The position numbers and the translations under genes were made by a program. Below the pieces are notes generated by a model that was not told the DNA's origin, ran no database searches, and worked only from the letters and a program-made list of their open reading frames with translations. Positions 5,101-33,600 of a stretch of 64,000 nucleotides of DNA are shown in pieces. The stretch is from Blasia pusilla (taxonomy: Eukaryota). Each line of letters starts with the position of its first letter. Position 1 is the first letter of the stretch. Location: the NCBI GenBank assembly GCA_050084515.1, contig CM114271.1:37448001-37512000 (forward strand), read 5' to 3'.

Positions 5101-5737
5101 CTCAGTTTCCAGCTCAAGTTTACGGGCCTGGATTATCAGCGAATTCGGCCGCCGCGGGGCTTTATCCATACACTGGATATCCGCAACCACTTCAGGGAGG
5201 ACCCGGCTATGCATCTCCACAGGCCTTCACGGGCGTGCAGGGCCCTTTGATGCCGTACGGAAACCCCGCCGGTGTGACTCCTATTACAAGCATGGCTCAA
5301 CAATACCCGTCAGCCATTCCCATACCCTCAGCTTCTCCTTCCGCCGGTTAGTTCTTCTTAATAATCGGAGAGTGCCAAGTTGTCTGATGTAGATCTATCT
5401 AGATGACTCTGGTATCGCCAAGGGGATGGTGGTCGACGTTTGGAGTGGAGATTCCCAGCGCCTGGAGCCTTTTGATGCTTCGGGTGTCCGCTGCTTGGGC
5501 TCCAATGCAGTCCAATTCAATTCACATCAATTCCATGAATTCAATTCGATGATCGTGTCTTGGCTTATGTGCTTTTTGTTTGGCGAGAATTGACGGAGGA
5601 ATCGTCGAATGACAGGAGTAGCACCAACGATAGCAGCAGCTGGAGTTGGAGGACCAGGACCCACCCAACAGTTCGTGGCGACACCGACGCAGCAACAATT
5701 CTCGACGAGCGGAGTCCCAGAACAGCCGTCCGGTTGA
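2188..5737 (+). CDS. RRM-domain RNA-binding protein (RBM24/RBM38/ARP1-like), 6 coding exons
   Basis: Exons 2188-2439, 3297-3423, 4281-4428, 4724-4763, 5076-5346 and 5616-5737, all with GT-AG boundaries and consistent phase. Protein: poly-Gly N-terminus, [16 protein letters not shown] (RNP2), KGYGFVTF (RNP1), [16 protein letters not shown], then a Pro/Tyr/Gly/Gln-rich tail ending at TGA 5735-5737. Confidence 0.92.
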
Positions 5738-5968
5738 GCCGAGCCAAGCCGAGCTGGTATTCCTGCCCAGTCGAAAAGAGAGTTGTGCTCTACTGAAGCA
5801 GGACGGGGCGCGGGCGGTGGCTAAAGAAATTCAGGGCAAGTTGTCGTCGTTTGTAAGAAACAGGACGATGGACAAACACCTCCACCTTGTGGGGATGTAT
5901 GATTGGCCATACATGCATCCGTTTGTGAGGTGTAGTAAATTTTGGTCTCATTTGTCACACAAAAAACA

Positions 5969-6080
5969 GGGGGGCGGGGAGGGGGAAGGGGAGAGGGAGG
6001 GCTAGGGAGGGGGAGGGAGGGAGGGAGGGAGGGAAGGGGGCTGGGAAGGGGAGGGAGGGAGGGAGGGAGGGAGGGATGGG
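5969..6080 (+). repeat. G-rich polypurine tract (GGGA)n downstream of the RRM stop codon
   Basis: About 110 nt of near-pure G/A with many GGG runs. A second (GGAA)n/(GGGT)n tract lies at about 6672-6800. Confidence 0.85.
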
Positions 6081-8899
6081 TCTCAATTCTTTATTTCCTG
6101 TCATGATTATTGTACCGAACCTATCATGAAACCTATCAATAACATGCCTCTGCCGCATGACTTCCAATCGTCTCTTCGAAAGAGGTGGTGCCGCCAATTT
6201 ACGAGAGCGAGCGTTCTGCCTATGTCTGCCCATCTTGTAGAGCTGGGATAGACACTTGATGAGCATTGCATATCACCGCCAATCTCACTCATTCTTAATT
6301 CTGGGGGATGCACGTGTAGCCTGTCGTGGTTCTCCGCCGCCATATTCTACTCCTCCCTCCTTCCACAAAACAGTGACTATTGATGTCGTCTTGATTTTAC
6401 ATCGTCACGCAGTACGAAATCGATACTTGAAAACTCGGCCACAAATTGGAGTCTAGTAAGGTGTGGTGCATGAAGATCAACAGACAGTCGCACAGTTCCA
6501 GGCTAACCGATTGGGGCTCTCTAAACTTCAAATCAGGCAACTCGGCAGTAACTCTGCCATAGCTTGACCTGCGAAGGAAGTCTTTGCCTTTCTTTTTACA
6601 TTTTTGCCATCCGGTCTATAAGAGAGGTGAGGACGAAGCTATAGCTAGCTAGCAACTACAAAAGTGTGAAGTGGGAAGGGAAGGGAAGGGAAGGAAGGGA
6701 AGGAAAGGAAGGAAGGAGGGGGGAGGAAGGAAGGAAGGAAGGTATGGATCGATGGACGGACGGACTGGTGGGTGGGTGGTGGGTGGGTGGGTTAGGGGGA
6801 TAGTGGGGAGGGCAAATTCATTACTGAGCTGATCTGTTAGCTTATTGAGGTAGATGTGCAGTGTAGGACATTATAGCCTGGAGAAAGCAATTCCGTTCTG
6901 TTCCATCGTCCGGTTTATTCAGGAGCATTTGGACCAACAGTTGGTTCTGTAGACTGTTTCAACCCTTTGGATCTGGGCCGAGATCCATGTCAATGTCATT
7001 ATCACACAACCATTGCCATAAAGCAACACAAATTCGTGTACACGCTCAAATTTTATGCATCGTGGTTACCAGTCAGTCCATGCGTGTTTCTGTACCCCCT
7101 TCTGGCTTGCTTCTGCCCTCCTGCCTGCGCTTCCCTTCGACCCTCTGATCTAAATCTTGTCTTGCATTTGGAAGAAGCTGGGCCATTCCCGCATTCTTTG
7201 TGGTCCCGGCTTCATCTCCTCACCCTCACCTCACCGCGTGCTCAAGTTTTTTGCTTCAGCTACTTTGCTTTGCTGTGCTTTCTTTCCTTTTCTTCCCGTC
7301 TTTAGGTCGTGTGTCCGCCCCATCATGACCTGCCTACAGCTACGGAAGTGCATGAGATGATTTCAGAATCTGGGGAGGCATCCACTAGTCTCCAGTGTGG
7401 ATTCCTGTGGCGATGGTACTCAACCTCTTCGATGTGATCTTCATCGTGAGCGAGTACGTACAAGAACAGCACTCGGTGACCCCGGAACGGGATATCCCAG
7501 TGATCGTAGAAGTAGAGTACACTTGTGAACTGGAAGGCTGTACACAAGAAAGTAGGACGTAACGAAAACAGGTAAGAATTTGGTTGGCCTCTTCAAGAGA
7601 ACACAAATGGACAGTGTGAGCCCTCGCGTGTGAAGGGTCGTTGAGATCAAAGGGCGTTTCAACCCTTGCACTTGGTGTCTCAAGGCTAGAATATGACCTC
7701 GCTGTATCAATACCTTGGAGAGGCTGCAGTAAGACTGGGGGAATGGTTGTGGGCGTCAAGGGTATGATTCAAGTGGAACATCGATGGAGACTCATGTTCC
7801 CACACATACAAGTCTCTAATAGTCGAAAGTAATACGCATAAGACGTTAGCAATAATACTACTTTTTGTCCGCTCAAAATACTGGAGGGATCCTCTCAAAC
7901 TCTCATGTGTTTCATAATTTTGGAGAGGAAAGAATTTCTTCAGATTCCTGGTGTGCCCTCTTGACATAATACAGCCATTCCCTCTCTAGTTTTCCCATAC
8001 CACCGAACCCTCCACCAAATTTATTTTCGATTTCTACTCTTACAAGTAGTGAAGTGGATCTCCCTTTAGGAGGAGATCTTGGTCCATTCTCATTTCCCAT
8101 GAAAGGCTACAAACTAAGATGGGGAGATGAGATGAACTCTTTCCCTCTCTCCTTTAGAAGAGTGTACGGACTCATGGCCCTCTATGTTAAATGCCAAAAT
8201 ATTTAAGAAAGTCTTAACAAGTAAACTACCATCTTAAAAAATATTATATGAATTAATCTTCATAATCTTATCTCAAAATCTTGTAACATATTTTGAAAGT
8301 ATTATGCCTACTTGACGAATTTTGGCATTTTAAAATGAACATATGGCACCCCTAGCGTTTGACATTTTATAATCCCTAGATTACTCACATACCACACAAC
8401 ACAACTCATGAAGAAAACTATATGAACCCTCATACTCATATCATAATAAACCTTCACTCATAATGGTCTTCAAAGGCGAGTGCCCCTTTCCAGTATTTAT
8501 TTAACTTACACAAAGTGTACACTCAAATGTGGAGAGTAAGCCGGCTCTACAAGTCACGCAAGCAAAAGACATGCACTTGATCCTTCATACGCCTATAAAA
8601 CCATGTATGAGTTCAAGTAAAGTTAGAGAGATAAAAGTTCAATCTCCCCAATTCAACTCCATACTGAGAGACACGTAGCCAGCCTCTTCAATTCCACGCA
8701 CCATTTAATTGGAAACGGTGGGTCTCTAACCTCTTCAACTCCAACCAGAATCTACTTGGAAACCATCTTCTTCACCTACCATGTACCCGCTACACTTGCA
8801 TAGTTTTGACATGACATGTATCAAAAGAGTATGAGTAGTTTGTTACCCTAAACCCTAGTAGTACTCCAAGACATATTTTTTTAGTTTGAGTTCTTTTCT

Positions 8900-13900: not shown

Positions 13901-14410
13901 TTTTAAATTTTAAAATATTTTAATCCACATGATGATTATTTATTTAAAAAGAGTTACCGATTTATTATATTTGAGTTGGAAATTAAATCATTTCTAATAT
14001 TTAGAAATGGAAATAAATAATGTGATTCATTTTTACTGCCCCTACAACTGTCGTGTAAATTGCGCATTTAAATTTCGTGGTGACAAGTCGACTCGGTGGG
14101 CAGAGGGAGAGCAAGGTGTCCACATCAGATTGCTGTATACGTGGGAGCGGGGTGCCACATGATTCAACCCATATCTCTCTCTGGACTTAGAGATCTCCTA
14201 CAATTTCGTTGCGAATAGAGTCGTTATTTTTGCCTTTGCTATGGTTTGTGCACAAGGTTAATGACCACAATTCAGTTGATCAATTGCATCTCAGCTTGCC
14301 AGATTCTTGATTACCTTTAACGGCGATAGTTTTGTAAGGCGACTTCTTATTTTAGATTCAGCATTGAGGATGGTGAAACTCCCTTGTGTGTCAGCAGAGG
14401 TCAGGAGAAC

Positions 14411-14655
14411 GAAGGCCATAGTTTGTCCCGGAAAGGCAATCAATGCGCGTAGGGTAGCGCCTACCTCGAGCTGGGTCGGGCCCACGTTTCAGGTTCGGGA
14501 GCCCCGGGATGGAGAGGTCGCGACGGAGGATAGGGAGGACAGCGCCTCGAGACGGACGGATCTAAACGGACGGCGCGAAACGGACGGAAGGCGCGGAACG
14601 GGCTACGTTAGGTCCGGTTCAAATGACGGAATTTGTCGACGGGTATTAGGGCGGG
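14411..14655 (+). repeat. Left TIR of the MULE
   Basis: Inverted homology to 26760-27029 extends inward to ACGG(G/C)(T)ATTAGGGCGG and is patchier in the inner half. Confidence 0.85.
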
Positions 14656-14716
14656 AATTAGGGGATTCGATCATTTTGGAACGAACGGAGAAGAGCGGTA
14701 GAAACCGAACACGGAG

Positions 14717-14930
14717 GGATTAGCATTTCATTACGAGCGGATTAGCATTTGATTACGAGCGGATTCACGTGGATTTTAACGTGGCGGACGAAGAGCGAGA
14801 GAAACACGGAACGAGGAAGAGCGCTTTGTATGCGGAGACCGTGATTAGCTGATTAAGAGTGGATTAGCATTTCATTACGAGCTTGATTAGTTCTAACTCG
14901 AACGCTTCTAACTTGATTGATTACGAGCTG
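14717..14930 (+). repeat. Left subterminal repeats GGATTAGCATTT(C/G)ATTACGAGC
   Basis: Two tandem copies from 14717, another at 14861, and a partial copy at about 14915. Confidence 0.8.
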
Positions 14931-15190
14931 CGGACCGCGGATTTCAAGTCGGATTAGGCGGATGGGGTCCACTCCGTAACTTTTTCATGTAAGAGATTAT
15001 TTGCGTCCATGAGTATCATTTGCCAATTTGCACGTAAGTAGCTATTGGTGCCACATTCGGCCACGGTGATAGATAAAAGCTTAGATCGTAATCCAAGAAT
15101 ACATGTCTATTATTATGTGCACTATTATTTTGGTGTTCGGTTCCATTTATGTACTGTCCGGTCTTGCCCAGGTCGAATGGACAGAATTCA

Positions 15191-15258
15191 CACTTGAAGC
15201 CTGCACTTAAAGTCTGCACTTTAATTGGAGCCTGCACTTGAAGCTTGCACTTGAATCC
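15191..15258 (+). repeat. ~13-bp tandem repeat CACTTGAAGCCTG, about 5 degenerate copies
   Basis: cacttgaagcctg cacttaaagtctg cactttaattggagcctg cacttgaagcttg cacttgaatcc, immediately upstream of the transposase ATG. Confidence 0.75.
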
Positions 15259-15275
15259 CTGAACAGATTATAGCC

Positions 15276-18200
15276 ATGGTGAAATTCAAGAAATATTTAG
15301 CTTCATTTGAATGCGATGTTATCCAAAACCCTCTCCCTGGTCCTATTTTGAGCGAGCATTCGATTTGGTATGGCAATAGAAAAGAGGCATGGATTCCCTC
15401 AGATAGGGTTGAAGACTTCATTCATGGTGAAGAACAAAGACCACATTTCCAGACCACATTTAGGAAAAGGAATACCGACAAATCAGGGAACATACATGTT
15501 CTGATTCGACATCTTGGTGTTCATATGGACCCCGGGATCATAGGAATACCGTCTGGACCTCTCCGCCAAGTGAGGTTTTTGATTCAAACTCGCTGCAAGG
15601 GAGGTAAGGGTAGTAGCCGTAAAGCCAAAGTACACGGCTTGGGTGTCTCGGGGGCGTGGATGCCAATTTCACTTTGCCGTTGTAACCTCAAAGGACCGCC
15701 CTGGGTGTTCTATGTTGACGCATATGCATTCCAAGCATGTCGATAAGGCGGGCTGTATATGCCATGGGGACTTAGACAAGACTGCGGACATTGCGAATGC
15801 AATTGTTGCCCCGAAGTTGAGTTCTCATTGTAGGGATTTTGTTGAACGGTTATTGCGAGTGAACGTGAGCCCCTTAAATATCATGAAGGAGCATAGGAGA
15901 TGGATTCGTGAACACATTCACGATAATCCTAATCAGGCACAAGCTTGGGGCAGGGACGCTATGTTAAAACCACAAGATATCCTTAATATCAAGCATTCAA
16001 TGCGAAGACGCGAAGGGGGTATGATGGAACCGATGACGCCACTGCAATCCAACATTGGGTTGCAGCTCATCCTGAAAATGTCATACACTACAAGGAGGCC
16101 ATTTCAAGTTTAGGCCAACCTTTCATCCTGGTCATTTCTACACCTTGGATGCTTCAAAATCTTTTGCATCTTGGTAACGGTGGAGCCATCTCCATGGATG
16201 CCACTCATGGCACAAACACATATGAGGTAATTTCAGGGCCTTAAAACTGCAATGTCATTCTCTTAGAGGAGTTTATAGCCTACATTATACGTGGTATCAT
16301 TTGTGATTCTTTGCCGACGATCGGCATAAATGTAAACATTTGGAACGTTGTGTTCACTTTAATAGATATGTACATGAACAATCGGATTCCTGAACACACT
16401 CTTTTCTATGTTCACAGTATCAGCTATTCACGTTGTTGGGTTTTGACAAGTTTCACAACGGATTACCTCTAGTATGGGCCATTTTACAGAGGCATCAACA
16501 TCGGGATCTAGTGGATGCATTGGCCCATATCAAGGATTGGGCAGATACATATATGACAAGAGATTTTGCGTCGGTTGGTAGCCCCGGTTGGAAACCGTCA
16601 TGCTTCATAGTTGACGACTCCAAAGAGGAACAATCGGCAATCAGAGAAGTCTTCCCTGATGTTCCCATAGACCTGTGTCTATGGCATGTAAGGAAGAATT
16701 GGTTAAAGCAATTGCACCAACGAGTCCGCTGTCCAATTACAAAAGCAGATATGAACAGGGACTTGGGTGGTATCATGTACTCACGTGAAGAAGGTGTGTT
16801 CTATGCGAGTCAATAATAGTAGTTTGTTTCATTGTTTCTCAGCTATGTCCGTTGTGGGAGTAGGGTTCATATTAATTAAGCAATGGTTTTCTGATACGAG
16901 AGATCCTGTGGATGTCTCATATCGTTTCATGCGCAAGTGGGCTGCAACTGAACGTCACTTTGTGAAATACTATTTAAACTATTGGCATCCTAAGATTGTT
17001 ACTTGGGCAAAGGGCTATCGTAAGCATGCAAGATCCAACCAAGATACAAATGTCGGGATAGAAAGGTGGCACCACACTCTGAAGATGCATCTCACTTCTA
17101 GCATGCCTACAAAACCCACCCGGAAGCTCATATGGCTTGTGCAGATCTTATGCGGGGAAATAGAAGATTTCTTTTGGTACTTGGGATTTTTGAAACGAGA
17201 GGGTATGGTGAGGAACAAGGCAATCCAGAAAGTCATTCTCATGGCTATTAGAAGGGCAAATGATATCCCAGAAAGCCATGTCACATTTCAATTGGTAGAT
17301 GGGAGGAAATGCGCAATGGTGAAGAGTTGCTCCAAGCCCGACTATTGGCATGATGTGGTTGACTACGACAAGAAAGATGTTGCTTGTACATGCTCTCGTG
17401 CCAATGAAGGATTCACGTGCAAACATCGGGTATGTTTCTTGCACCCCGGATTTGGTGACCAAGCTATAGTCCCACCTGAAATCAAACAGTTCTATGTATT
17501 AAGTATGTCTTATTCCTGCACTAGATGTACGAGGATTTTACGTGCAGCCTACTGAGAATTTTTAAATTGTATCAGGTGAAGTGCTTACTGTTGAGTGGGC
17601 ACTCTGAAGTAGAGTTGTTGTCTTTCCTTGGCACACCTTTTGGTAGCAAAGCTGGTGGGTTGGAAAACATGGTGCAAAGGCATGCACATGTACAGGAGCA
17701 ACATGGAGACACACTAGTGGAATCAGACTTGTCTTACGGTGTTGGTTATCCAGAAGAGGTGCAAGCTACTACTCCTACAGTTGTATCACAAGCAACAACT
17801 CAAGAAGATGTTCGAGAGATGGTGGAAAAATGCTTGGCCACAACCATTGGAGTCCCATTCTGCAATGTTCTTCTTGAACATTTGTATGTACTTTTGCAGA
17901 AGGATATGGACTCACTTCGAACTCAAGCGCGGATAGAGACGAACACAGAACTTCCAGAAAATTTAATGAACATTGGACAACACTTCCATGAACCCTTTGT
18001 TGGAGGCAATTCTCAAGATCGTCGGCTGCGTCGGCGGATGGGTTGGTTTGAGCAAATGCATGAGAGAAGGAATTCACATTCCACACGTTCCACACGGAAG
18101 AATCAACCCCAAGCAATAATGAATCAGGTGGAGTCCTTTCCCAGAGTGAAACGATCAAAATATCTGAACATGGAGGCAGAATTGGAAGCAGATGCATGTA

Positions 18201-18469
18201 ATCATATTGATTTGGACGCTATCGTGAGCCAATATGAAAGCGAGGCAACTAAGGAGAATACTCAACAATCAGAATGGCCTCTGGTAGATACAAGGCCACA
18301 TAAGAACTACAAAATCAGCGCTTCTACTAAGAGAACCACTGCAGATGTCATACTTGATAGTCTGTTGGATGAAGAGCGATATGTTGCGGAGGGTAGTCAA
18401 ATGGATGAGTACTCAAGAAGACCCGATAATTTGTATGTAGTACAGGATTCCCAGATTCATGATTCATGA
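15276..18469 (+). pseudogene. MULE DDE transposase with SWIM zinc finger, frameshifted
   Basis: Catalytic and structural motifs: ISMDATHGTN (D1), YQLFTLLGFD, FIVDDSKEEQSAI (D2), LCLWHVRKNW (CxxH), TNVGIERWHHTLK (E) and SWIM CTC...FTCKH. Introns at 16227-16417, about 16794-16900 and about 17430-17575. Frameshifts near 15500 and in the G run at 16015-16019. Confidence 0.88.
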
Positions 18470-19599
18470 TTGATGAAGCATTTCCGAATTTCACATATTA
18501 GCCACAGAACACAAGAAATCTGATGTTCAACAAAAAAAAATGTATTTTTTTATGTAAGGCCCGGATGTTTACGCACGAGAAATGTGTTCCCTTCTCATGT
18601 TCATGTCCACCATGTCCCATTTTCATGTACGGTGAGCAATCATGTTATGTTTTTACGCAAGCATCCAAACCATAGTAACCATCGTGTAGGTTAAGTTGTG
18701 AACCATAGTAACCTGTCCGACCTATCTTCACGGTTTTGTATAGTAATAGTTGTATCCGAACCCAATTCAATTAATATTCAAGCATCCAAACCTTAGTAAT
18801 TACCACAGTCGGTTTTCTATGGATTCAATCCGTAGTAAACGTACGAGGTATGTTTGTACCCGAACCACGCAAGGTTCCGCAACACCGTGAGCTTCGCGTT
18901 TGGGGCATGTCCGCACCGCCACGCGCTTGTGTCAATTTTAGAGAACTTCTGTAATATAGTTCTGACTACTTCTATAGTCGTAACTAAAAAAAAACACCTC
19001 AGAAGGCCCACGAACCCTACCCCTGAGGGTCGTGCCTCTTCGTAAACATTTAGCGGTGTGAGGTGACCTTCCCCTAATTAGGGCTTGATTAAAATCGTGT
19101 CTAACCGAGATTGTCACAATGGATTGACGATTGGGGGATACGCAACAAGAAGGCTAGAATTGATAGTCCGATGTATGAAGCGAATGCCCTTGAAACACAG
19201 CCTTTGAGGTGTTCATGAATGAACACCTACATTTCGCTGTTCATACATTTTTCGTGTCATTGCATTTATGATCACTAAACTTGTATTTGCTCTGAGTGTT
19301 TCGACCACTTGTCTTTTATTTTTGAACAGGGTGTCATGGACTCTATCTATTCATGAGCTGATTACACATGAGTGCTTTAATTTCTTGGAAATTCAAGAAT
19401 TGACAAGCGTGGTGTTCATACATCGATCCATTGTGGATTACAAAGTTTACCACCAATTACAGGTGGAAGGACATGTGATCATTCATAACATATAAGACAC
19501 ATCAGAATAAAGTAAGGAGGAATTTGTTTAGGTATCATTCAAGAGTACAATCTTAGGAACAAAGATCAAGAATAGCTCTGCAAGTTGTATGTTTAATTT

Positions 19600-22340
19600 A
19601 ATTGACAATGGTATCCTTTTGGTCCATACCATTTCGTCCACAATAGTTCAGCAGACCATGACCTATAGCCCAACTAAGGTAACCTAAATTTCTTGGATAG
19701 ACCTTCATAACACACAAAATGGTAAGGGAAAATGTGCCCCATAAGCGATACACCAAACAGCGTGCATTGCACCTGCACAAAATAGAAGAACCATAAGGCC
19801 ATACATTAAGAACAGAAATCTGCCCGTTTCTGGTTTGTCCAAAGCAGAAAGACAAAACTTCACAGCCTACGTGCCAGGTAGGAACTCTCCTATACTTACT
19901 CTAAGAAATCGCCCTGATCATGAACTAAGTCCTAAACATCCGCAAAATATGATGATATGAACTCCCGCCAAAATGCTTGAAAATTTCTGCAGAAAGTCAC
20001 ATGCACACACATACGCTACAGAAGCATGTTTAGATAGTAGTAACCGTCATATACATAACACATTTGTAAAGAATTGACACCAGGGAAAGTAAGACCAAAG
20101 AGAAAAGTGACACATTACTTGCGAGTGGTCCAAAGGTATGTCGTCATAATCGCCGAGGAAACATATCAAAAAGTATGACAAGGGCGCAAAATATACAGCA
20201 ACCTCTGCAATGAAAGTTCACACACAGGTCTAAGAGATTAAATGCCAATCACCAGATGAAAGGATAATCATAACAGTGAAATCGCATGATACATCTACAC
20301 ACTCACCAAAATGTCATTCCCCGTGGTGGTCAAGGACTTGGAGACATGCCATCCAGAGGCCGCAATGCTGGAGTGCAGGTAAAGGTGTGGCGTGAAATTT
20401 TTCGGCACTAATCCCTTCAATACCGTCCTGCGAAGGTAAGACCAAAGGGTCTTCATGGCTTGTGCCCCGGTCCTTCAGAGTCCCATCTGCAGGTTTCTGA
20501 ACACACTACAACATATCAACACAAGCACAATTACTGGAGATGGTCCGAAGACATACAATAAAAAAATGTTATCGACAGAATTGAGCAGAATGCAAGACAC
20601 CTATTGTGAAGCCATCATCATCCTCCTCCTTTGGGCTTTTTCTTCTTTAGTCATGCCTTTGGGTGCTCTTTCCATGATTTGTGGATCTGCCTGCAAGACT
20701 ACTTCATCGGGGGTATGCGAGTCTTCAATTGGGCCTTCATCACCTGGCCCATGACTATCCATGACCGGGCTAGATTCACCCAGTTCGACGTCAACTTCCG
20801 GGTTCATTCGGCGGGATTTCCGAGATCCTACCGCACCCTTACCTCACTTCTGCACCTTTTCACCACGCACGTTACGTGTCCGAAGCGTCACTGGTCTCCT
20901 CCGCATCTGAATCAAAAGAGTATCCTCCTCACTCTGCTCGACATGATCTCCCGCAATATCCTCCTCACCACCCTCACATGGCGCCTGCTCCTCCTGTATC
21001 ACATGGCGCCCGGTACTATGCGTGGTGGATTGGGGACTTGGTAGATGTGTATCACTACAGTCAGAGTCACTCGAATCTATGATTTCCACATCCAGGCCAC
21101 CCTGCACATCTAGAAGTTGTTAGAGACAATGCGGAATTACAAGGGATACAATGGGAAATCATGAACTCACAACTCTTCAACAATTCATACTGAGAAATTT
21201 GCATGAAATGAAGCAAAGACTATACCCAGACAACCGCATCAGCAAGGGAGCAGCCGACTCCATCCACATACATGCGAGAGACTTTGTCCCTGAACTTGGC
21301 AAGAATGCTAGGTTTACTCTTCTCTTTCCAGATCTTGTAGTTAAACTTGAAGCGTGGGAGGTAGTACTCCTCACTGATGTACCATGCATGCCTTTGTGCT
21401 CGGCGCATTTCATCTAGAACATGCAGGGAATGTTCAACCTGATGCTTCCTGGTTTTGGCTCCAACATCCCATCGATACGGTTCATGTGTGTCCATGATCC
21501 ACACCGCGGCTAGATGATGGAAAGCGGCCATGCATCTCCAGTAGGTGGAACGCTGAACTCTATATACAGGGATAGTAGAAAGGAGAAGTCTGCGGCCCGA
21601 CTCAATCCATCCCCTCACAGTGGTGGTAGGGCACACAAGGGCACCCTCTAACTCCTCTTGGACCTTCTCATACTCATGTATCCTAGCTAAACCTGCCCAT
21701 GAGGTATGACCGTGTTCTTTTGTCCTATAGCCCTCAAAAGCAATCAAAAGATCTGGCAAAATGGGCATAGGTACAAACGGGACCGCTGCCCGTTTGGAAT
21801 GCTCCTTCGCTTTACTGAAGAGAGCAGCCTTCTTCTGTTTTCTGCGATGAGCCAGGCGTTCTTTGTCGACGGTGCCTCGCAGACGCAAGTTGGCTGCAGA
21901 TGGGGTAGCCTGGTTCCCTGCACAAGGAGGAACATAAATGAATGAAGTTCAGCTATCATAAAGCACATACACCAAAAATTGCTACCATCTCACTAACTGC
22001 GTATGAAAGTTCACTTCCTACACCCTTACCATCATCTTCATCCTCCATGTCGTCTCGGTCGTTGTCTGCTTCCACCTTCTTCTTACCACTCGCCCTTGGT
22101 GTTCCAGGCACCGGCCTTAACCAATGTGATGCAATGTGTGAGTTAAAAGTTTCTGGCCCACGAAAGTACTCGATGCACTTGGAGCACAGGCACACGAATT
22201 GCTTATGCTCCTTTGAGTAGCAATAATGAACCCACTCGACCGGGTCCCGCCAAAGAGAGGTTTGTGCGGCTGGTTTCTCTGGAGGACCTACACTCTTGCC
22301 CCTAAATGCAGCAAACATGTTTGCTGGTTGGGCTTCAACC
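19600..22340 (-). pseudogene. MULE cargo gene B: multi-exon protein with an N-terminal C2H2 zinc finger, a helical domain and an acidic region, with premature stops
   Basis: CSKCIEYFRGPETFNSHIASH fits C-x2-C-x12-H-x3-H. Following segments are 21220-21920, then 20844-21107 and 20601-20807 (same frame, separated by one TGA), and further splice-bounded segments at about 20260-20500, 20120-20205 and 19600-19775. The exon model is tentative. Confidence 0.6.
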
Positions 22341-22959
22341 TGGAGTGTATGCACAACGAGTTCTCACTCACATGCCTACGCACCAACATATACAAGCATA
22401 GCTGTAATTTAAAGTTGGAATGCAAAGTTGGAATTTAAAAACATACTTCTAAAAATGTAAGCAAAAAATGTAAGCTAGAATTCAGTATCTAGAATGTAGA
22501 TACAGAATTCCTCTCGCATCCATACCCCAAAGCTCCTACCAAAATTTGTAGGATACATATCCTCAAATTCCATCCGAGAAAAATTCTAGGTTTTGGCTGT
22601 AATACTTTAGCCAAAAGCAGGAATTCCTGGTTTTGTCACCGGGTATATTATATCTGAAAAGTTGACAGAATGTCTACTTCATACAGACACACTAAGAATC
22701 TGTATGAACATCCCAACAATCCAAAATATGTAAATGTGTCAAGGCCACAAACATAAGAAAACCTACTTCTACCCTAAACCTAACATGGCCCACGTGGTCA
22801 AGGTCTTGAGGAGCCCCCACTACATGCCAAACACAAGACGACAAAGACTCGAATTGGTTAGCCAAGCCAACGGGGAACAACATACATGCATGAGGAATTC
22901 AGGTGTACCATGTAAATACCATAAATGTAATCACGCTAAACTCCGTAAAACAAACAATT

Positions 22960-23921
22960 CTAGAAGGAAACAAGGTACCGAGAAATACCCCGAGCTAAAT
23001 TCAGAAGGGCCATGGAACTCAGTACTTCGGACAAATCTGAAATGTGCTCATTCCCAATCGGTGCTTTGTCATCCACATAAGTCTGGTCGATAAGGTAGAT
23101 ACTTTTAGGAGTAACTCCGATAACCCAAGGAACAGGGTCCTTCTCCTCAGAGGTGGACACTCTCCTCTTTAACCGGATTGTACAAAAATTTTTGGCAAGC
23201 ATGTTATGTTTGGATGCCCCCATCAAATGTTTAATGTCCTTAATTCGGACAACATTCATCTCACCTCCCTGGTTTTCCACCACTAGAAATTCAGTCTGTC
23301 CCTTCTTCTGGAAGTAAGAGTCTAACCATACATGGTCCCCCGCCAACCAGGCCTTGGGTGAGAATGCAACATTAAATCCATCATGTATCGCTGCCTGTTC
23401 TAGACACTTATAAGTTTCCAACGGAAACCCTAATACAATCCACTCATCCAAATACATTATGGAGTGAGGATGCAAGCGCTTGCACACAATATCAGCTAGA
23501 AAAAAATCTGAACTAGAACTGCTATATACTATGGGGCTGACCCATGTCTGAAGATTGCCATGGTTCCTTGATAGAAGACCAGCCACGTTTTCAGGTTTGT
23601 TAACCTGAATTCCCAACAACCGCAACCCCTTGGCATCTAAAAACATCGGCTGACCCGACATGGCCCTAATGTGTTGATCCTTGGTGGCTTTAATCCTACC
23701 TCCCCTACTGCCTCAAAAAATGTAACTGTCGATGGCGGACTTGCAATGTTACTGATGACCTTCAACCCTACACAACACCAAAAACAAGCAGAATTCAACA
23801 AGCTTCTGAGAACCCTCAAAATAAGACGAAATTCAAGAAGAATCATGTCAAAAAAATACTGCCCAGAGATGATGTTTCGTGGAATCGATCCATCATCTCT
23901 CGAGTCTCGATGCTCGAGCAT
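22960..23921 (-). pseudogene. MULE cargo gene A: ~280-300 aa globular protein of unknown family, with one frameshift
   Basis: ORF 23637-24002 (GLKVISNIASPPSTVTFFEAVGEVGLKPPRINTLG) and ORF 22960-23661 (MSGQPMFLDAKGL...PWVIGVTPKSIYLID) join in frame if one G is restored in TTAGGGCCATG at about 23663. Composition is protein-like, with alternating beta-strand patterns. Confidence 0.6.
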
Positions 23922-25264
23922 AAGCAAAGCAAAGCGTGTTGGCGGATGGAAGGAAGGAAGGGTAGCATCATTTACCTGCCGAATTCGTTTACCTGCTAGC
24001 AAATCAGAGTGACTTTAATGCTAGGATGGTAGGATAATTTATCTCCTAGCACATCAGAATGACTGACAAGAATATCTAGGCAAATTCTGATTGCCTTTAT
24101 TCTCAGCAGAAGCCTATAGAATCCCAGCACACTCAAACATATCCACAACCAAAAATAATCAGGCACATAGCAATTCCAACCACATTTGGATTGAAAACAA
24201 CAAAAAGTGGTAGCTATACCTCGCTTCAGACATAGTAGGATTTAGAGGTCAGATTAATCAACTGCGCACACATAAGCACGCCTAAGAAAGGACTTGAAGT
24301 TAATAGCAGCCTATGCCTTTACCCAACACTATCTTCCAAACGAGTCCCGATTGAGCTTTAACATTTTATGATGACACTTGCCATCACAAGATGATGTCTA
24401 TATCCTGTCTAAGTATAAAAAGGTTGAGCACAATTACTGTACGATTTCATGGTACAAGCTATCAATTGAGGTGGGGCGGAAGTACCACCATTACTCAGAT
24501 CGTCTATGGCCTTCGGCCGAACAGGGTTTTCTTGTGCCCAAACGCCTCAATACACTTTTGACCCTAAACGACTAATTCTACATTTTTGACTTATCCCTCA
24601 CTTTAGGACCCTAAATGCTTTCGCACGAATTTACCTGCTAGTAATTCAGAATGATTTAGCAAATCAGAATGACTAAGCAAGTGACTTCCACAGATACAAA
24701 GGATGCAACATGCCTAAATATATATAAGCTTTGAATCAACTGCCCACACGTAAGCACGAACATTAGCAGAGAGAGAGGAAGTCGAGCAGAGGTGGGCGAA
24801 CGACACCGGAGAAAGCACTCACCAGAGGTAAGTGAACGAAGGAGAGCCGAGCAACCGAGCAACCGAGCAACCGAGCTTTTCTCTCATAACACTCTCCTTC
24901 ACAAACACTTCCTATTCTATGTATCTCAGCCCTTAGCAAAAATCTTCAGAGTTTACTCACCATCTTCTTTGAATCCTGAAGTTAGTCACTGTCGGATAGA
25001 TTCTATCAAAATACATCACTTTTTTCATTCAATACCCCCCCCTGGTCTCACCACTTCTAGATTCATTCCTCATCAACTCCATACTTTTAGGAACATGCTT
25101 GAAAAACTGCTAGTTATCATGCTTTTAACCTTCACACTTCTTGGCGCTTCTAGTTAATCCATCCAATCTGTAGTTTGTGATTGACAACGAGATAGATGAA
25201 GTGTTTTTGTCTGCTTCGGAAACTTTAATTTGCATATACTCAATCTGCAACACAAGTTATCCAT

Positions 25265-25825
25265 TGGGAAATTACACCCATAGAACATCGTTTTCGCACC
25301 ATAGGACACTCCCGGTATTGACAGTCTAAATCTCCTGGCTGACACGGTGATGGGGGTCCGCGGCTATCTGTGGCTTTCACGAGCAGACAGGCGAGTTTCA
25401 AAACCCAAGGTATCATGTGCATGACACCTAGGGTTTTGAGAGACGATAGATGTTAGACCTCTTCCCGTAAGAAGACGCGAGAATATCCGTGCTCTTGAGG
25501 ACAATTCAGTTCGTTTTTTGGTTTGCTAATTCTTAAATAGTATGCTGCAGTGAACAGCGGACTATGTCCTCTTCTCTTTCTTTCTTTCTTCTCTCTTTCT
25601 TCTCTCTTACTCGGAAGTGCACACTCCTCCGGGCGTCGGTTCTGCAAAATGATTCATTCATTTGTGGGAAATTACACCCATAGAACATCGTTTTCGCACC
25701 ATAGGACACTCCCGGTATTGACAGTCTAAATCTCCTGGCTGACACGGTGATGGGGGTCCGCGGCTATCTGTGGCTTTCAGGGGCAAACGGGCGAGTTTCA
25801 AAACCCAAGGTATCATGTGCATGTG
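25265..25825. repeat. ~160-bp near-identical direct repeat pair inside the MULE
   Basis: TGGGAAATTACACCCATAGAACATCG...AAACCCAAGGTATCATGTGCATG occurs at about 25265-25423 and about 25665-25823. Confidence 0.9.
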
Positions 25826-26439
25826 CATGCCAGATTTTAAGGTGAATCAGGATATACACTCTTCTCGGGGACGGGCCGAGGACGGGATTTAAGGTGAATC
25901 ACGATATACACTCTCCTTATTCAAGAGGGCAGAATAAGGATATACACTCTTCTCGGGGACGAGCACGAGAACATCACGAGACATGAATCAGAGTAGAGAG
26001 AGAGGAATTCAATGCAGAGGTGGCGAACGACAACGGAGAGAGCACTCACCACCAGAGGTAAGTGAACGAAGGAGAGTCGGAGCATACGAGCATCAGGAAT
26101 TCAGCATTGCAGACGAGCATCAAGAATTCAGCCGAGCAGCCGAGCATCAGGAATCTTAAAGCGAGAACTTGACCAAAAAAATGAGCAGCCATATGTGGAA
26201 AATTTCTCGATTCCAAGCAGCCCATCTTAAACATCAACGAGCACCAGGAATACTGAAGCTAGTTAAGATTGGCCGAAAGCCAGGCGACGAGCACCAAGAA
26301 TACGTAGTAGCCAGCCTTTACTAAAGCACGAGCCCGATCAGAATGGCCGAGCAGACGAGCATCAGCTCCGATCAAGATCCGGAAGAACGAGAACACCGCG
26401 AGAACGAGATCAAGATCCGGAAGAACGAGGACATCGTCA

Positions 26440-26730
26440 AGAACGGGAGCGAGTCGAGCGCCAGGAGCGAGTCGAGCGAGCTGAGCCACGAGCGAACGAT
26501 CAAGAGCGAGTCGAGCGCCAAGAGCAAACGAGCGAGTCGAGCACCAGGAGCGAACGAGCGAGTCGAGCGCCAGGAGCGAACGACCCGGAGCGAGTCGAGC
26601 GCCAAGAGCAAACGAGCGAGTCGAGCGCCACGAGCGAACGACCAGGAGCGAGTCGAGCGCTAGGAGCGAGTCGAGCGAGTCGGGCGAGCCGAGCCAGGAG
26701 CGAGTCGAGTGAGAGCTGCACGAGTCGAGA
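26440..26730 (+). repeat. Right subterminal CpG-rich tandem array (core GAGCGAGTCGAGCGCCARGAGCRAAC)
   Basis: About 11 GAGTCGAG cores in variable-length units adjacent to the right TIR. Confidence 0.9.
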
Positions 26731-26759
26731 ACGACCGCCCTACCGCCAAGAGTGAACGA

Positions 26760-27029
26760 CCGCCCTAATGCCGTCAAGAACGGACTTCGTCCATCCCTCC
26801 CCGTCCTCCCTGACTTTCCATCCCGTCCGTCTCCCACCGTCTACGGCGCGTCGTCCGTCTCTGGAAGGCGTCCGTCACGACCTCTCCATCTCGGGGCTCT
26901 TGAACATTTTGACATAAATGATCATCAACTCTATTGCATTTGGGCAAGGAAACGTGGTCCGACCTCCATTCTGGGGTAGGCGCTACCCTACCGGCATTGA
27001 ATGCCTTTCTGGGATGAACTATGGCCTTC
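26760..27029 (-). repeat. Right TIR of the MULE
   Basis: Inverted copy of 14411-14655 with a ~40-bp insertion at about 26905-26948. Confidence 0.85.
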
Positions 27030-29170
27030 GCATGAGAACAAAGATAACTCATATTCACGCCAACAAGTTCTACTTCTAGAAAATGCGTAAGACTATCTGA
27101 TGGCAGCGAATGTAGAATGCAAGTGGCACCTTTTGCATTGCTGTGTTTGAGAAACACGACGTGGTTACCGAATACATATTTTTTTGTTTTGTGTAGCTTG
27201 AAGTGTACCTACCTTCATTTTCTAGCAGCCGATTTGTGCTGGAGAACCAAGGTGCTCCTTAATTATATTGTGTTTCTTGGTTGACTCACCACTGATTACA
27301 TGTGCAGATTGGGCTGCATGTGTGTAAGAGTGAATCGAGCATCTTCATTCGGGAGTGAAATTGTGGTATGTGGGGATGAAATGAAATGAAACAACGGCGA
27401 GGCGAACAATTATTCTTTATGCATGTTGGCAGCGGCAACATTTTGCAGTCAGAACTAGTCAGAAGATGCAGCAGGTGTGTGTGCGCGCAATTGAACCACT
27501 ATCCCGTGAGGGTGTCCAAATCTCCGAGAGCATTGTACCAGTTGGTTTAACATGTAGCCTTATCACACTTGGCGTATTCTCGAGGTTTAGTGACTTTGCA
27601 CGATCCGGCTTAGCCTTGTTTTCTTTTCTACCTCTATTAAGTATAGCTCAGTTTAGTGCGACCGGCTTGTTCTCCAACTAGGGCAGAAAATTTGTGCTAA
27701 GGTAAGGGCCGATTGTCCATTGTGTTTGCTCACGTTGCAACAACATAATTCTGTAACTCAGTCTTCAATAATTTGGACCAACCAATCCCCCTAAGTGGCT
27801 TGTCTAAGCCACAGTACGTTAATTATTTTCTTATAGTGCATCATAAATGGTTCCTTAGTTCAAATCTGAAATATGGCCAAACACACATCACAATTAATAT
27901 CTTGTTAATAGACTTAAGCAGATAGAAGGAAGAGGATCTCCCCCCAGAGGTACGCTTGGAATTCTCGAGGGGAATCCCATATTTTTCATTTTCCACCACG
28001 GGCCTTTTCTTTTGGTCCGCAACCCAAACATGGTTTGTGACTTGCGTTTAAATAGTTACCCATCAAGATGGCTTGGGGGAGTCTTCCTACACATTGTTAA
28101 ACTCCCAAATCCCAAAATGCATCTTAGAGCTTGGATGTGCATTTTTTGTCTCATGGCTAGAGCCCAACTTAGCTCTTCTTATATGGCATCTCATGTTTGG
28201 CTCTCATCTTGGAAGTTGGCTCGAGGATCTTACACCTTTCTTGCCTTGCCTTCATCCACATGAATGCATTGTGAATAGCTAAGTGTATGGCCTAAGGTTA
28301 CATGTGGAAAAATTACGTGTCCGCGGACATGTCTATATCCATGGACTTACATCCGTCCTATGGAAGGACTTTTCCATATATGTTCCACCTTCCCCTTCTT
28401 TCTTATTCCCTCCCACTTGCCTTCGTGATTCATACTCTCTTGTTTCTTCCTCCCTCCACCTTTGTTTATTGCCCCAGTTGCCTCTTTTGGGATGCGCATA
28501 TGAAGATGGAACACATAATTAATATAGTTTTGTCATTCTGACCCATCATACATGGCCTATTCAAGACCAAGTCAACTTGGTCTTAAAAGAGTAGACTTAA
28601 TACAATTGAAGCTCATTTGTAGGCTTGTTTAGAATACATTTGTTAAAAAAAAAGAGATCACAAGATCTCACATTGTTAGTTCACCATCACTGATCTACAT
28701 TTCTTTTGGAGAGTGTCCCTTGGATTTTCAAACAACTATGGTATCCAAATCTGACATTTATAGTCAATTTTGAGTCAACTTAGAGATGGGCGTGGAATCC
28801 GTGTGGCTACTAATGGGTATTAAATTACACATTGTTACCTACTTGTGTGATAAAATTCAACGGTAACAATATCCGTTCTATACAGAAACATAGAGTGACG
28901 TTGATCTTAATCTAGGTATTTTCTGTGAATTGCCTAGCCCCTCTTTTGACACTTCACAAAATTATTTGAACAATTGTGTGGATGAAAATTCACATGGAGG
29001 TAAGTTGAAGTGTAAATAGTTTTGGTGCTTCATTTCTCATAGAACCTTTTTCTTTTTATCCTCCTACTTATAGTAACCCATATATGTTTCATTGAGAGTG
29101 CCCTTTTATACGTGGAATCAGTTCAATTGGGAGCCTCTCAATGAGAACTAGCGCTCTTATAATGATAATA

Positions 29171-29385: not shown

Positions 29386-30664
29386 TGAAGATGCCAAGCA
29401 AATTCCAAATTTTTTTTTATATTATGAAAACATTTTCTTTTTGGTTGTCATATGTGAAAAATGTTTATTACGACCTTTAAAAATCTGTCTTTTTTTCAAT
29501 AAAACTATCCACATGTCCTCCAACACGTGTTTGGTGATTTAATAATATTTCTCCCTTCAAGACCCCGCCCATTGTTAATCAAGAAAAAACTCTCCCAATA
29601 TGAAAAATAAATTCATCCCCATCACTAGATGAATAATATCCGCACACATTCGCCAAACTAGTTTTAAACTGACAAGAAAATGTGCATGCATTCGGACCAA
29701 GGGGTCGAAGCCGCATAAACCCCGCCGGACTATAAATACCAGGTAGCAAGACGGACTGACGGACAACCGGACGGACAATCGGAGCCTCTCTCAATCCTCA
29801 CAATTCGCGGGTCATTTTTCTCGTGCGCTCACGGAACCGGCATCGTTTGAAGCTCCTTGCTTATTTGTCTGTCGGTCGGTCGTTCTGGCTGCCTGCCCCA
29901 TCCGATCAGATTCGTTCATCACTGTGCGTGCGAGCTCAAGGGCATCGTCGGCGCTGGCACCCGTTCCCTTTTACCGTCCCATCAGGCCACGGTTGGCCAC
30001 CGGTGGACATATAAATTGTTGATTGCGCTTTTTACGGTAGGTGTAAACTCCGTGTATTGTAAATTTAGGGATTGCCTTGTTTTGAGGTGCTGTCAGAGTA
30101 GTTTCCACGGGACTATTCGCTCATGTCAGCGTACAGGTGAGAGTGAAAGTGAACAAGTGAGTAGCGAGAGAGAGGGAGAGGTGAAATTTATGGTATTTTC
30201 TCATTGATTGTGATGTGGATGAGCCCCATGGCACTAAGTGAGGGATGCATAAACTTTTAAAGGCGCACTTGGAATTTTGAGGAAGTCGCAGCAATCGAGG
30301 GCTTTCCGGGGTGGAGTTGTGTGTGCACTCGACGGAGTGAGTGTCAGTTTAGGGTCGATCTGTACGAATTGGACATTTTGAACCTTTAGATTCGGTGATG
30401 AGCGAAACGAATTGCGGGGACGATCGGAGTTTAGGATGATTTGCAAGATTGGTCATGAGGTTTATCAGGGGTTGAATCCCGGCGTTTAAACAATCCCCAA
30501 CAGGATGCAGACTGTATGCTAGTAACTTCGTAAACGTTTCTTTCCAGTCTCGCACATATGTCACGTAAGAGAAGGTCAACGGATGGTAGGCCATCTGTAG
30601 AGGTGTAATTTTGCTTTGGAGGGGTTTCGCTTGTTCTCACTACATCCATCATCGTTCTTGCAGT

Positions 30665-33600
30665 ATGGAGAATAAGCAAAAGCTTTTGATTCTGTATGCA
30701 ACGGAGACAAGGAACGCCCAAGATGTAGCTGAGCGCATTGCGCGTGAAGCTGAGCGGCGTCATTATGGTCCTGTTTTGAAGTCCACTAGTTCCTATGAAC
30801 CAGTAAGGGCCTGTCACTTTTTCTTGGCGTCTATCTGATAATTTTTCAGCGTCCTCGGCGTCTTTCTAAAAGAATCCTGGCTAAGCCTAGAGTATGGGCA
30901 AACTGTTCATCAATTGAGAAAAGTGTTTAATAGTTCGGAGCACATGCTGCCTGCTAGACAATAATGGAGAGGACACGAGAAGAATCCAAAGTTCAGACTA
31001 CCTTCCGGCAGCTAGTTGCCTGCTTAGCTGAAACAATTTGGAGAGACTTGGAAAATTGCGTCGGAGCTTTGACTGGTTACTTGATGGGACTAGGTTTCAG
31101 CTCAAATCGTGCATCCAATGTTCTGCAGTAGGCAGGACATTGGATGCACGATCCAAATTCAATGTGGTTTTTGTGGCATCTAGGCAATGTCCTGTAGTAG
31201 GCACCACAGTTATGTCCACTGACCAATTTTTTCGTCTTTTCTAATGCAGACTGCCATGCCGATGGAAGAGAATGTGGTTTTTGTGGCATCTACGTGCGGT
31301 CAGGGTGATCCTCCGGCGGCATTTAAGGTAGAGGATGAGATGGATAGAGATTTCGGCAGGATTGTTTGACTTCAATCTAATTATTCTTTGTGCACTTGGT
31401 TCTACATAAAGTCATGACTGAAGGCTTAAATACATGCAGAATTTCTGGAGATATCTGCTTCGGAAAAGCCTTGGTCAAGGTTGGCTCCAAGGAGTCCATT
31501 TTGCTGTATTTGGCCTTGGAGACTCAGGCTACCAGAAGTACAATGTAAGTCTTCATATGAGGCAGGCTTTAGGATGAGTGCCAAGCTGTCATTTTAATAA
31601 TGTTTAGTGAAGAATCCAGTCATGATGTGAGTTTTTTTCTTGTTCTTGATCGTGTTGGGCTGGAACTAGGTGATTATGGAAGCTGTTGATGACTAGCAAC
31701 ATTACTAGATGTCTGGAGGAAATTCTGTATTTAAACAGACCTGCAGTAAACAAAAGTTGGTGAAATTGTAGAACTTGGGAGGCAATCTATCTCCTGGTTA
31801 TGATGGAGCTAGGAATACGTGACTGTAGAACTATGTAGAGAACCATTTTCTCATCAGAAGGAGGAAGCAAAGTGATCCATTTCATCTCAACTACTTATTC
31901 CAAGATGACCAAGGGTAGTGAAAGCTTATGGATAACTATCACTTCAACAATAATATTCAGCATGAAGTGTTTGAGGTGTGTGGAGGCATTTAAGCTGTTA
32001 GTATGCCGTCATCTTCTCCAAGACGGATCTTGATCATTCACAAACGCTTTAGCTCACTCACATGGTGAGATTTGTGGAGACATTTAAGATATGACAAAGA
32101 GCTGTTAGTATCCCAGCATCTTCTCTGAGACAGATCTTGGTCATCCACAAATGCTTTAAGCTCCCTCACATGGAACACATCATGTACTCACTTCATTTCC
32201 AGCGAAAATATAACTTAGATCTTTGAATTTGATAGACCCACGTGATGGATGATCCTGATGTATTTTCCATGTATTCTCTTGCAGGTGGTGGCAAAGAAAC
32301 TCGACCGTCGACTCTCAGATCTTGGTGGAACGGAAATCATTCCCAAGGGGCTTGGTGATGATCAGCATCGTTCAGGGTATGTTAAGATTTGATTGTATGA
32401 TCAAAACTCTTATGTGCTGCCCTTTTCCAATGAGATGAAGGTGCTTGGTTGCTTCAAGGAATAGAAAGATTTAAAGTATGGATGTTTCTTAGTGTTTGGG
32501 ACTTCTGAAGTGCAACTGGTGCTCAACCTGGAATGCAAGAAGTGCTGGTGAAATTGCACCTATATAAATCTCTCCAACTAAAGTTGGTGAATGAGACTCA
32601 TTATCCAATGTTGGATATGCTGTAGCCCCAACAAGTCATGATTCACTATACCTATGAATGGTGTTGATTTCCTTGTGTAGGTATGAAGCTGCTCTGGATC
32701 CTTGGCTGGTAAAACTGTGGTCAGCATTGAGAGAAAGAATCCCACTTCCGTGTGGGCTTTCTGATCCTGACAGTAATGACTTGAGCAGCACTCTCCTGGA
32801 TCGCCCTAAATTCAGTGTTACTTTCCATGATTCATCAGTGGGTGTATCAAGGATAGCCACGGACCATGATGGTAGTTTTGAATTTTCTGACTATCTAAGA
32901 CTTGTGCTGCACGTCCTTTTTCTTAACTTCAGTTGCCTTGGTACTTTGTGTTTCTTCCAGCCTAGACTGGAAGAATTTGCCTGTACTTTAAGTAAACAAT
33001 CTTTAATTCAGGAGTCTTCTGTTTAGGATTTCATAATCGTCTCTGATGGAGGGGTAGAGTTAAGGAGTTAGATTATTTGACAAGGTCTCTAAATATAGGC
33101 TATTCTTGTGTGGGCCTTTGTAGCAGAATGTTGCTCCCTATCTCAGTCAGACAGCACATTGTTTCAGAAACTCTCTGGTACTGTGAATGTGAGATAGAGT
33201 GGTTTGTTAAGGGTTCATTGACTCTGACACAAGTAAACTTACAGAGTTAAACCACATTACAATCACTCTCAATGATGCTGTATGGGTCACTTAGTATTGA
33301 CATTTCAAAATTAATGCACTTGTACATGTCCCAGTTTGTATCTTCAGTATGATCGCCGTGTAAAATGAAATAAGATCATGATATATATGTCTCGAATTAA
33401 ACTGAAGTGGCCAGGTCCCAAGAGCCTGCCTTTTAAAAGACTTCAATTTTTCTATCTTGTTTTGGTATAGTTCTATGGTTTTGTTTTTCTATCCCTTATC
33501 TGACCAATGGTGGTGCCATCCCTGTGTGCTAGCCCTTCGCTTTACTCAAGAGAAATGGTCTGAATACCAGAAAGCACGGGTTATGTTGGATTCTGCCGCT

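Follow-up and report, generated by a model that had tools for sequence, protein, structure and literature searches.

Are the additional genes carried inside a large transposable element helpers of its transposition, or are they passengers taken up from the host? This question is raised by a 12.6-kb Mutator-like element (MULE) located at positions 14411-27030 of a 64,000-nucleotide stretch of Blasia pusilla DNA (assembly GCA_050084515.1, contig CM114271.1, positions 37,448,001 to 37,512,000 of the forward strand), which we refer to as the window and in which all positions below are counted. An earlier note, made from the sequence alone, had described a cargo-bearing Mutator element at this site, and our analysis agrees with this in finding a MULE of the autonomous type with extra genes on the minus strand. 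Specifically, the element's ends, its target-site duplication (TSD) and its transposase domain identify 14411-27030 as a MULE of the autonomous MuDR type, present here as a copy with slight damage, and the ends, TSD, transposase domain and gene structures constitute the demonstrated part of this account. In regards to the two extra genes, termed gene 1 and gene 2 and collectively the cargo, we favor with evenly balanced confidence the reading that they may be lineage-specific, element-borne helper genes in the manner of mudrB and mutB. Our best reading is also that the cargo genes are neither dead captured host fragments nor relatives of VANC.

The boundaries of the element are set by a TSD in which CAGGAGAAC at 14402-14410 agrees with CATGAGAAC at 27031-27039 at eight of nine positions. 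The probability of a match of at least 8/9 is 1.1e-4 for a single register, and it is the choice of this register that fixes the element at 14411-27030. Inside the duplication are long terminal inverted repeats (TIRs), whose core arms (14410-14465 and 26975-27030) cover 56 nt at 89% complementarity with six mismatches in the core. A further inverted pair (14493-14527 and 26871-26905) covers 35 nt, also at 89%, and the termini can be aligned end to end across ~190 nt with two indels. The left TIR accordingly extends over 14411-14600 on the plus strand (core up to 14465, alignable to ~14600) and the right TIR over 26810-27030 on the minus strand (core 26975-27030). A 28-nt pattern common to both TIR arms matches only the two ends in the 64-kb window, with 0.00 matches expected. 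The TIRs and the degenerate TSD reported by the earlier note are thus upheld, the former by the 56-nt core at 89% and the ~190 alignable nt and the latter by the 8/9 match at P = 1.1e-4. Self-comparison of the window revealed no further copy or fragment of the element, an Rfam scan of the window returned no family, and the TIR pattern had 0 matches in metagenome contigs. Of 22 listed sequencing runs, 10 contain part of the stretch, the highest share of its words in any run being 0.33, and no RNA run is listed among those that contain it.

Just inside the termini, the heptamer ACGGACG is the sole motif common to both ends of the element, where it is present in three plus three copies in inverted orientation. 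The left subterminal copies lie at 14552-14586 on the plus strand with a 14-nt spacing, and the right subterminal copies are on the minus strand at 26824, 26852 and 26869 (to 26875). Overall there are seven copies of this motif in the window versus 1.83 expected, six of the seven are subterminal, and none of 100 shuffles reaches seven. By analogy with the superfamily, these symmetric repeats look like subterminal transposase-binding sites.

The plus-strand transposase that had been proposed for this element is supported by an open reading frame (ORF) at 16394-16816 (+) that matches the Pfam MULE domain (PF10551) with an E-value of 1.1e-10 and a score of 42.3 bits versus a cut-off of 27.6. The gene as a whole covers 15276-18469 (+), with an ATG at 15276 and an N-terminal part at 15276-16031 that is followed by exons at 16032-16226, 16418-16793, 16843-17429 and 17576-18469, which together provide 683 uninterrupted codons to the stop. 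The introns that separate these exons are 191, 49 and 146 nt in length and have canonical GT..AG borders, as established by reading of the DNA and by a scripted junction test. The candidate catalytic D/D/E residues, which we take by eye to be those in SMDATHG (16191-16211), FIVDDSK (16604-16624) and GIERWHH (17055-17075), are based on motifs known from such transposases. A SWIM pattern (CTCSRANEGFTCKH, 17385-17426) lies directly 5' of the 146-nt intron and is restored across that intron, and Pfam gave no SWIM match on the transposase exon pieces.

Frame changes are present in the transposase gene as well. From the ATG at 15276, 98 codons are open before the next frame change, which a 61-nt GT..AG segment (15570-15630) bridges in frame as either an intron or a frameshift. 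The frame change at the G-run at ~16015-16031 is a true frameshift, since there is no space for an intron. In addition, the 49-nt intron could be a frameshift given that it is short relative to the 191-nt intron (35432-35622) of a host reductase gene in the window. Besides the certain frameshift there are therefore two junctions that are either very short introns or frameshifts, so the transposase has one certain disabling lesion and three at most. With at least one frameshift in the N-terminal part, the reading frame of this DDE transposase is not open throughout, and the element is of the autonomous type but disabled. The copy is thus not autonomous as it is, owing to at least this one transposase frameshift plus one TGA in gene 2.

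Genes 1 and 2 are both located on the minus strand, with their stops facing the transposase stop across a 2.1-kb region (18470-20600) that is without recognizable coding content and in which no ORF of 45 aa or more had a Pfam match. This MuDR-like convergence of cargo and transposase had been noticed in the earlier note, as had a C2H2-finger gene and an unknown globular ORF, which we find to correspond to gene 2 and gene 1, respectively. The minus-strand coding sequence that it described is real, but not at the length of ~5 kb that it gave, as the two genes span 23661-20601, which amounts to ~3.1 kb with 2.2 kb of coding sequence.

Gene 2 (20601-22318, minus strand) is composed of exons at 22318-22030, 21917-21226 and 21101-20601. 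Its introns of 112 nt (GTAAGG...pyrimidine tract...GTGCAG) and 124 nt (GTATAG...GTGCAG) are both canonical and in frame. The 494 codons of the gene consist of 412 sense codons, a TGA (20846-20844), 80 further sense codons in the same frame and a TAG, corresponding to a product of 412 or 493 aa. Exon 1 contains a single C2H2-pattern finger (CLCSKCIEYFRGPETFNSHIASH, 22124-22192, minus strand) with the usual hydrophobic positions. When the gene 2 protein was shuffled 20,000 times, the strict C2H2 pattern, defined as C-x2-4-C-x3-hydrophobic-x5-hydrophobic-x2-H-x3-5-H, arose once and the loose one 34 times, and residues 44-71 have a weak match in the PDB to a C2H2 protein (E 0.21). The remainder of the protein comprises basic stretches, an exon of ~230 aa that is predicted with low confidence to be helical, and an acidic Ser-rich tail. 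A separate observation is that the antisense (+) strand of the finger exon, at 22125-22193, also reads as a C2H2-like pattern (CDAMCELKVSGPRKYSMHLEHRH), which is probably a curiosity of codon complementarity.

Gene 1 (22960-23661, minus strand) is an intact ORF of 233 codons plus a stop that starts with an ATG at 23661 and falls in the open frame of the ORF 23712-22963 (minus strand, 250 aa). The 233-aa product is predicted to have a mixed alpha/beta structure. Gene 1 may also have a non-coding exon further 5' or be spliced to gene 2; an intron of 660 nt that joins the two genes is feasible in frame, but its sites are weak and there are several donor and acceptor options. Also seen in this region are a pyrimidine-rich, acceptor-like ttttttgag at 23712, just 5' of the gene 1 open frame, and a repeated minus-strand module (...CATTCTGAT(T/G)TGCTA...GCAGGTAAA...) located 5' of gene 1 at 23970-24070 and 24620-24690, each copy of which terminates in a donor-like CAG|GTAAA. 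These repeated modules may represent a duplicated first exon of gene 1 that is non-coding.

The minus-strand ORFs behave as genes, as the earlier note had assumed, in that they are complete, have two in-frame introns and a coding-type GC distribution, and contain few lesions. The pair of in-frame canonical introns is the strongest intrinsic argument for this. Regarding length, the longest ORF in each of 300 Markov shuffles of the element had a 95th percentile of 201 aa (maximum 288 aa), which is exceeded by the cargo ORFs of 250 aa (gene 1) and 242 aa (gene 2 exon 2). GC content by codon position follows the order 1>3>2 in the cargo, as it does in the transposase. With codon models, the cargo exons scored -0.06 to +0.16 bits per codon and the transposase pieces -0.11 to +0.10, while the controls scored -0.06 to -0.79 for five non-coding ORFs and +0.10 and -0.04 for an ORF antisense to the transposase. 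This codon-model test is weak because the antisense control scores as high as the cargo.

The earlier note had also regarded this copy as decayed by frameshifts and stops, which turns out to be overstated. Most of the seeming frameshifts are introns and, when these are removed, gene 1 has no internal stop, gene 2 retains a single TGA and the transposase a single certain frameshift, so the copy is much less decayed than had been thought. Overall we observed one stop in 725 cargo codons and none in 683 transposase codons, where ~5 would be expected in each set if the TIR mismatch (5.4% per arm) represented post-insertion decay (P = 0.042 for the cargo and 0.007 for the transposase). As there are fewer stops than TIR decay predicts, either the copy is young or the TIRs were already imperfect at insertion. 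Damage to the cargo is no heavier than damage to the transposase, which fits genes that have been open as long as the transposase and does not fit long-dead captured fragments.

We also searched for relatives of the cargo. Pfam revealed no domain in any cargo ORF (E <= 0.1). Another 62 ORFs and exon pieces from the element were likewise blank, in a scan of ORFs of at least 45 aa that left out four ORFs overlapping one stretch. With the threshold raised to E <= 10, Pfam again gave nothing for the exon 1 and exon 3 pieces of gene 2. An exhaustive phmmer search with gene 2 exon 2 had 0 matches among 1.84 billion protein representatives. For gene 1, word-index searches confirmed 0 of 812 and 0 of 196 scored candidates, and the exact 233-aa product is absent from the protein collection. 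The same type of search with a piece of the transposase (16755-17555) gave 0 of 210 candidates, which indicates that the word index is without the transposon proteins of this lineage and that the blanks for gene 1 are therefore weak. Pattern searches of contigs also confirmed no matches, with 0 of 23 for the gene 1 protein in metagenome contigs, and 0 of 125 for gene 2 exon 2 and 0 of 40 for the transposase exon in prokaryote genome contigs. A PDB sequence search with the cargo gave nothing below E 0.03. Residues 34-109 of gene 1 (22963-23661, minus strand) had phmmer matches to six related legume lectin chains, with a best E-value of 0.034, which we judged to be due to chance as there is no Pfam lectin match. 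No resemblance was seen between the cargo proteins and the transposase, between the two cargo proteins, or to anything else in the window. With best E-values of 0.81-1.0 for both cargo versus transposase and cargo versus cargo, we rejected the idea that the cargo had arisen from the transposase in the manner of Spm TnpA.

Among known systems, the layout is, by analogy, closest to that of maize MuDR, in which a second gene, mudrB, is convergent to the transposase gene mudrA. Shared with MuDR are the long TIRs, the 9-bp TSD and a transposase of the MURA type that has the MULE domain and a SWIM-like pattern, together with a convergent gene inside the TIRs. There are also several differences, in that the Blasia element has two extra genes rather than one and a length of 12.6 kb versus ~4.9 kb, the start of its gene 1 lies 3.3 kb in from the terminus, and the convergent stops are 2.1 kb apart. 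No relatives of the cargo were found in the libraries, which may or may not include MURB. MURB is likewise described as a small, lineage-restricted protein whose fold is not known (PMC12973397; PMC6446971), and it is reported to be needed for insertion and to bind the N-terminus of MURA (PMC12973397 section 2.3; PMC6446971).

MULEs with extra ORFs are already documented, which provides a precedent for cargo genes that function as helpers. Examples given in PMC6446971 are mudrB, mutB with a DNA-binding role, vanB/vanC, the separate C2H2 ORF of Spectre, and antisense PMD ORFs of angiosperm MuDR elements. Across 1007 green-lineage genomes, PMC12973397 gives 52.3% of the non-transposase proteins of active TIR elements as having known domains and 47.7% as having none. 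In our literature search, which did not extend to Tables S1 and S6 of PMC12973397, there was no description of a bryophyte or liverwort MULE with accessory genes. A likeness also exists to Spectre of aphids (a C2H2 ORF plus transposase) and Mutyl of yeast (mutB), each of which is described as pairing its transposase with another ORF of C2H2 type or with a DNA-binding role (PMC6446971). These elements, which we liken to the Blasia element by description, differ from it in host and clade, and the protein encoded here is much larger, with a single finger pattern near its N-terminus.

A mode of action can be proposed for the element from the family to which it belongs. Specifically, the transposase, with its N-terminal Cys/His-rich region, DDE core and SWIM finger, would bind the long TIRs and the three ACGGACG copies at each end, and would cut and paste the element with generation of the 9-bp duplication. 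If genes 1 and 2 are helper genes, their products would be small nuclear proteins which, through binding to the transposase or to the element's own DNA, support or regulate its transposition.

Several points weigh against a helper role. The finger of gene 2 is a pattern only, as Pfam zf-C2H2 is not found even at E <= 10. Single-sequence AlphaFold2 models of the cargo are unusable, with predicted local distance difference test (pLDDT) values of 32.7 (gene 1) and 38.1 (exon 2 of gene 2). The blanks in the searches for relatives are weak, with the exhaustive search covering one exon (gene 2 exon 2) only, and neither the element nor either cargo gene was seen a second time in the window or in the metagenome or prokaryote contigs. 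The ATG of gene 1 lies 3.3 kb inside the right terminus, which differs from the situation of mudrB, a gene driven from its TIR, and the 3-kb repeat-rich region 5' of gene 1 could be acquired DNA. Finally, MULEs are well known for capture of host DNA, and a recent capture would give the same low density of lesions.

Capture is the leading alternative, and we regard it as possible, though less probable than a helper role. It holds that the cargo stems from recent capture (transduplication) by the MULE lineage of one or two genes of the host, which are passengers without a role in transposition. Cargo of Pack-MULEs is usually fragmentary, whereas both genes here are complete from ATG to stop and have a lesion density as low as that of the transposase. 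There is also no host paralogue in the 64-kb window, and gene 2 exon 2 has no homologue in 1.84 billion proteins even though a conserved host gene should have relatives. However, a recently captured orphan host gene would fit all of these counter-points as well. Capture is further favored by the fact that the cargo genes retain introns of their own, that neither resembles the transposase, and that they are flanked by 5 kb of unexplained non-coding DNA that includes segmental duplications. Gene capture is indeed described as a hallmark of MULEs (PMC6446971), and the Blasia element is like Pack-MULEs and gene-capturing MULEs, such as the angiosperm MuDR elements whose antisense ORFs are of the PMD or Peptidase_C48 type, in having inside Mutator TIRs non-transposase coding DNA, which in such elements is often antisense (PMC6446971; PMC12973397). 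It is unlike Pack-MULEs in that the transposase is kept and in that Pfam shows no PMD, Peptidase_C48 or Zf-GRF in the cargo. Thus, what characterizes a Pack-MULE was not observed, with a transposase present and no host parent gene in either the window or the protein libraries.

A second alternative concerns the repeats in the non-coding regions. TRF analysis bears out the earlier observation of tandem arrays close to both ends of the element. In the left non-coding region, 5' of the transposase (14717-15256, +), TRF detected a 22-mer repeated 2.2 times at 14717-14765 and a 13-mer repeated 4.6 times at 15191-15255. At the right end only, a minisatellite (26447-26722, +) contains 11 exact GAGCGAGTC cores (26447-26706) that are unidirectional. 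Neither the introns nor the region 5' of the transposase contains this motif, and no 8-mer with at least four copies is spread over these regions either. Between gene 1 and the minisatellite lies the 3-kb non-coding region 5' of gene 1 (23662-26440), which contains segmental duplications (25244-25423 and 25641-25823 at 93%; 24765-24861 and 25992-26092 at 86%) and small arrays (CCGAGCAA repeated 3.8 times at 24847-24876 and a 27-mer repeated 2.8 times at 26080-26154). Both copies of the ~100-nt duplication at 24765-24861 and 25992-26092 (+) keep a perfect donor-like CAGAG|GTAAGT, so the right non-coding region may give rise to a transcript from the plus strand or have retained a regulatory piece. 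Observed/expected CpG ratios are 1.38 (14410-15275) and 1.31 in the subterminal regions, 0.46-0.78 in the element body, and 0.64 in the whole window.

These features bear on the explanation put forward in the earlier note, which we regard as unlikely, namely that the cargo encodes a VANC-like, sequence-specific anti-silencing factor, with the C2H2 protein binding arrays of short motifs within the element and either erasing DNA methylation or preventing it. It would be consistent with the combination of a transposase, a putative DNA-binding protein and unidirectional arrays of short motifs in non-coding DNA, and with the high subterminal CpG ratio (1.31-1.38 versus 0.46-0.78 in the body). The formation of tandem and segmental repeats in non-coding regions is also as described for VANC targets (PMC5735166). 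Indeed, the Blasia element is like Arabidopsis VANDAL21/Hiun, which is described as encoding VANA, VANB and VANC, in having a transposase plus two further genes, and also in having repeat-forming non-coding regions with short motifs in the same orientation (PMC5735166). VANC proteins are reported to carry DUF1985 and DUF287 and to bind a 9-bp motif that is dense in several non-coding regions (PMC5735166), and VANDAL elements are described as having degenerate TIRs (PMC10398659).

However, the kinship with VANDAL/VANC that the earlier note had suggested was not supported, as Pfam found neither DUF1985 nor DUF287 in the cargo ORFs (E <= 0.1) and the TIRs are long and conserved rather than degenerate as in VANDALs (PMC10398659). 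Its idea of a target array fared no better, as the dense array of the 9-mer GAGCGAGTC (11 copies) is present at a single site and ACGGACG looks like transposase sites. Specifically, VANC motifs are described in several non-coding regions and in introns (PMC5735166), whereas the Blasia element has one array at one end that, unlike the YAGTATTAY arrays, does not extend to introns or to the region 5' of the transposase. The sole motif common to both ends is likewise arranged like transposase sites. With both the VANC domains and the degenerate TIRs lacking, and with motif arrays that correspond at best in part, the element is not a member of the VANDAL/VANC group.

The weakest alternative, which we consider slightly less likely still, is that the minus-strand ORFs are not genes but chance frames or remains of an unrelated nested element. 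In its favor, none of the cargo ORFs could be assigned a family, a homologue or a confident fold, 1 of 300 null sequences gave an ORF of 288 aa, and the ORF antisense to the transposase equals the cargo in the codon test. This is countered by two separate ORFs that are longer than the 95th percentile of the null, a pair of in-frame canonical introns by which one ORF is extended to 494 codons, a C2H2 pattern that occurs in 1 of 20,000 shuffles, the lack of a TIR or long terminal repeat pair around the cargo, and the lack of a reverse transcriptase, integrase or second transposase domain in the scanned ORFs of at least 45 aa, from which four ORFs were left out.

Pfam analysis of the window shows that the element is flanked by host genes. 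A diflavin reductase gene with flavodoxin, FAD-binding and NAD-binding parts (30590-36152, +) has its first recognizable exon ~3.6 kb to the right of the element, which places the element in the upstream intergenic region of this gene. Other genes in the window code for a Gly-rich RRM protein (2158-2496, +; PF00076, E 1.6e-13) and for a class I S-adenosylmethionine (SAM) methyltransferase (38172-38729, minus strand; PF13649, E 2.6e-10). Positions 1-8000 of the window have a GC content of 0.49-0.57 versus ~0.40-0.47 elsewhere and contain many long overlapping open frames on both strands.

Plant MULEs with lineage-specific extra ORFs, about half of which are without known domains, are already documented at scale according to PMC12973397, and as it stands this element is a well-preserved example of this documented type of MULE with extra genes. 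A more far-reaching idea, which we hold to be improbable, is that of a module of independent origin in which gene 2, possibly together with gene 1, would recognize the element's own fast-evolving arrays (the GAGCGAGTC minisatellite and the 3-kb region) and thereby keep the CpG-rich ends unsilenced. Such a self-defense module, if true, would be analogous in function to VANC or Spm TnpA while being built from unrelated proteins in a MULE that retains long TIRs. Returning to the favored reading of genes 1 and 2 as element-borne helpers, if these genes prove to be constant in this family and under selection then two new protein families would join the very short list of MULE helpers for which a function can be claimed, namely MURB, mutB and VANC. 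Finally, the near-intact state of this copy would point to a recently active endogenous DNA transposon that might provide a tagging tool in its host.

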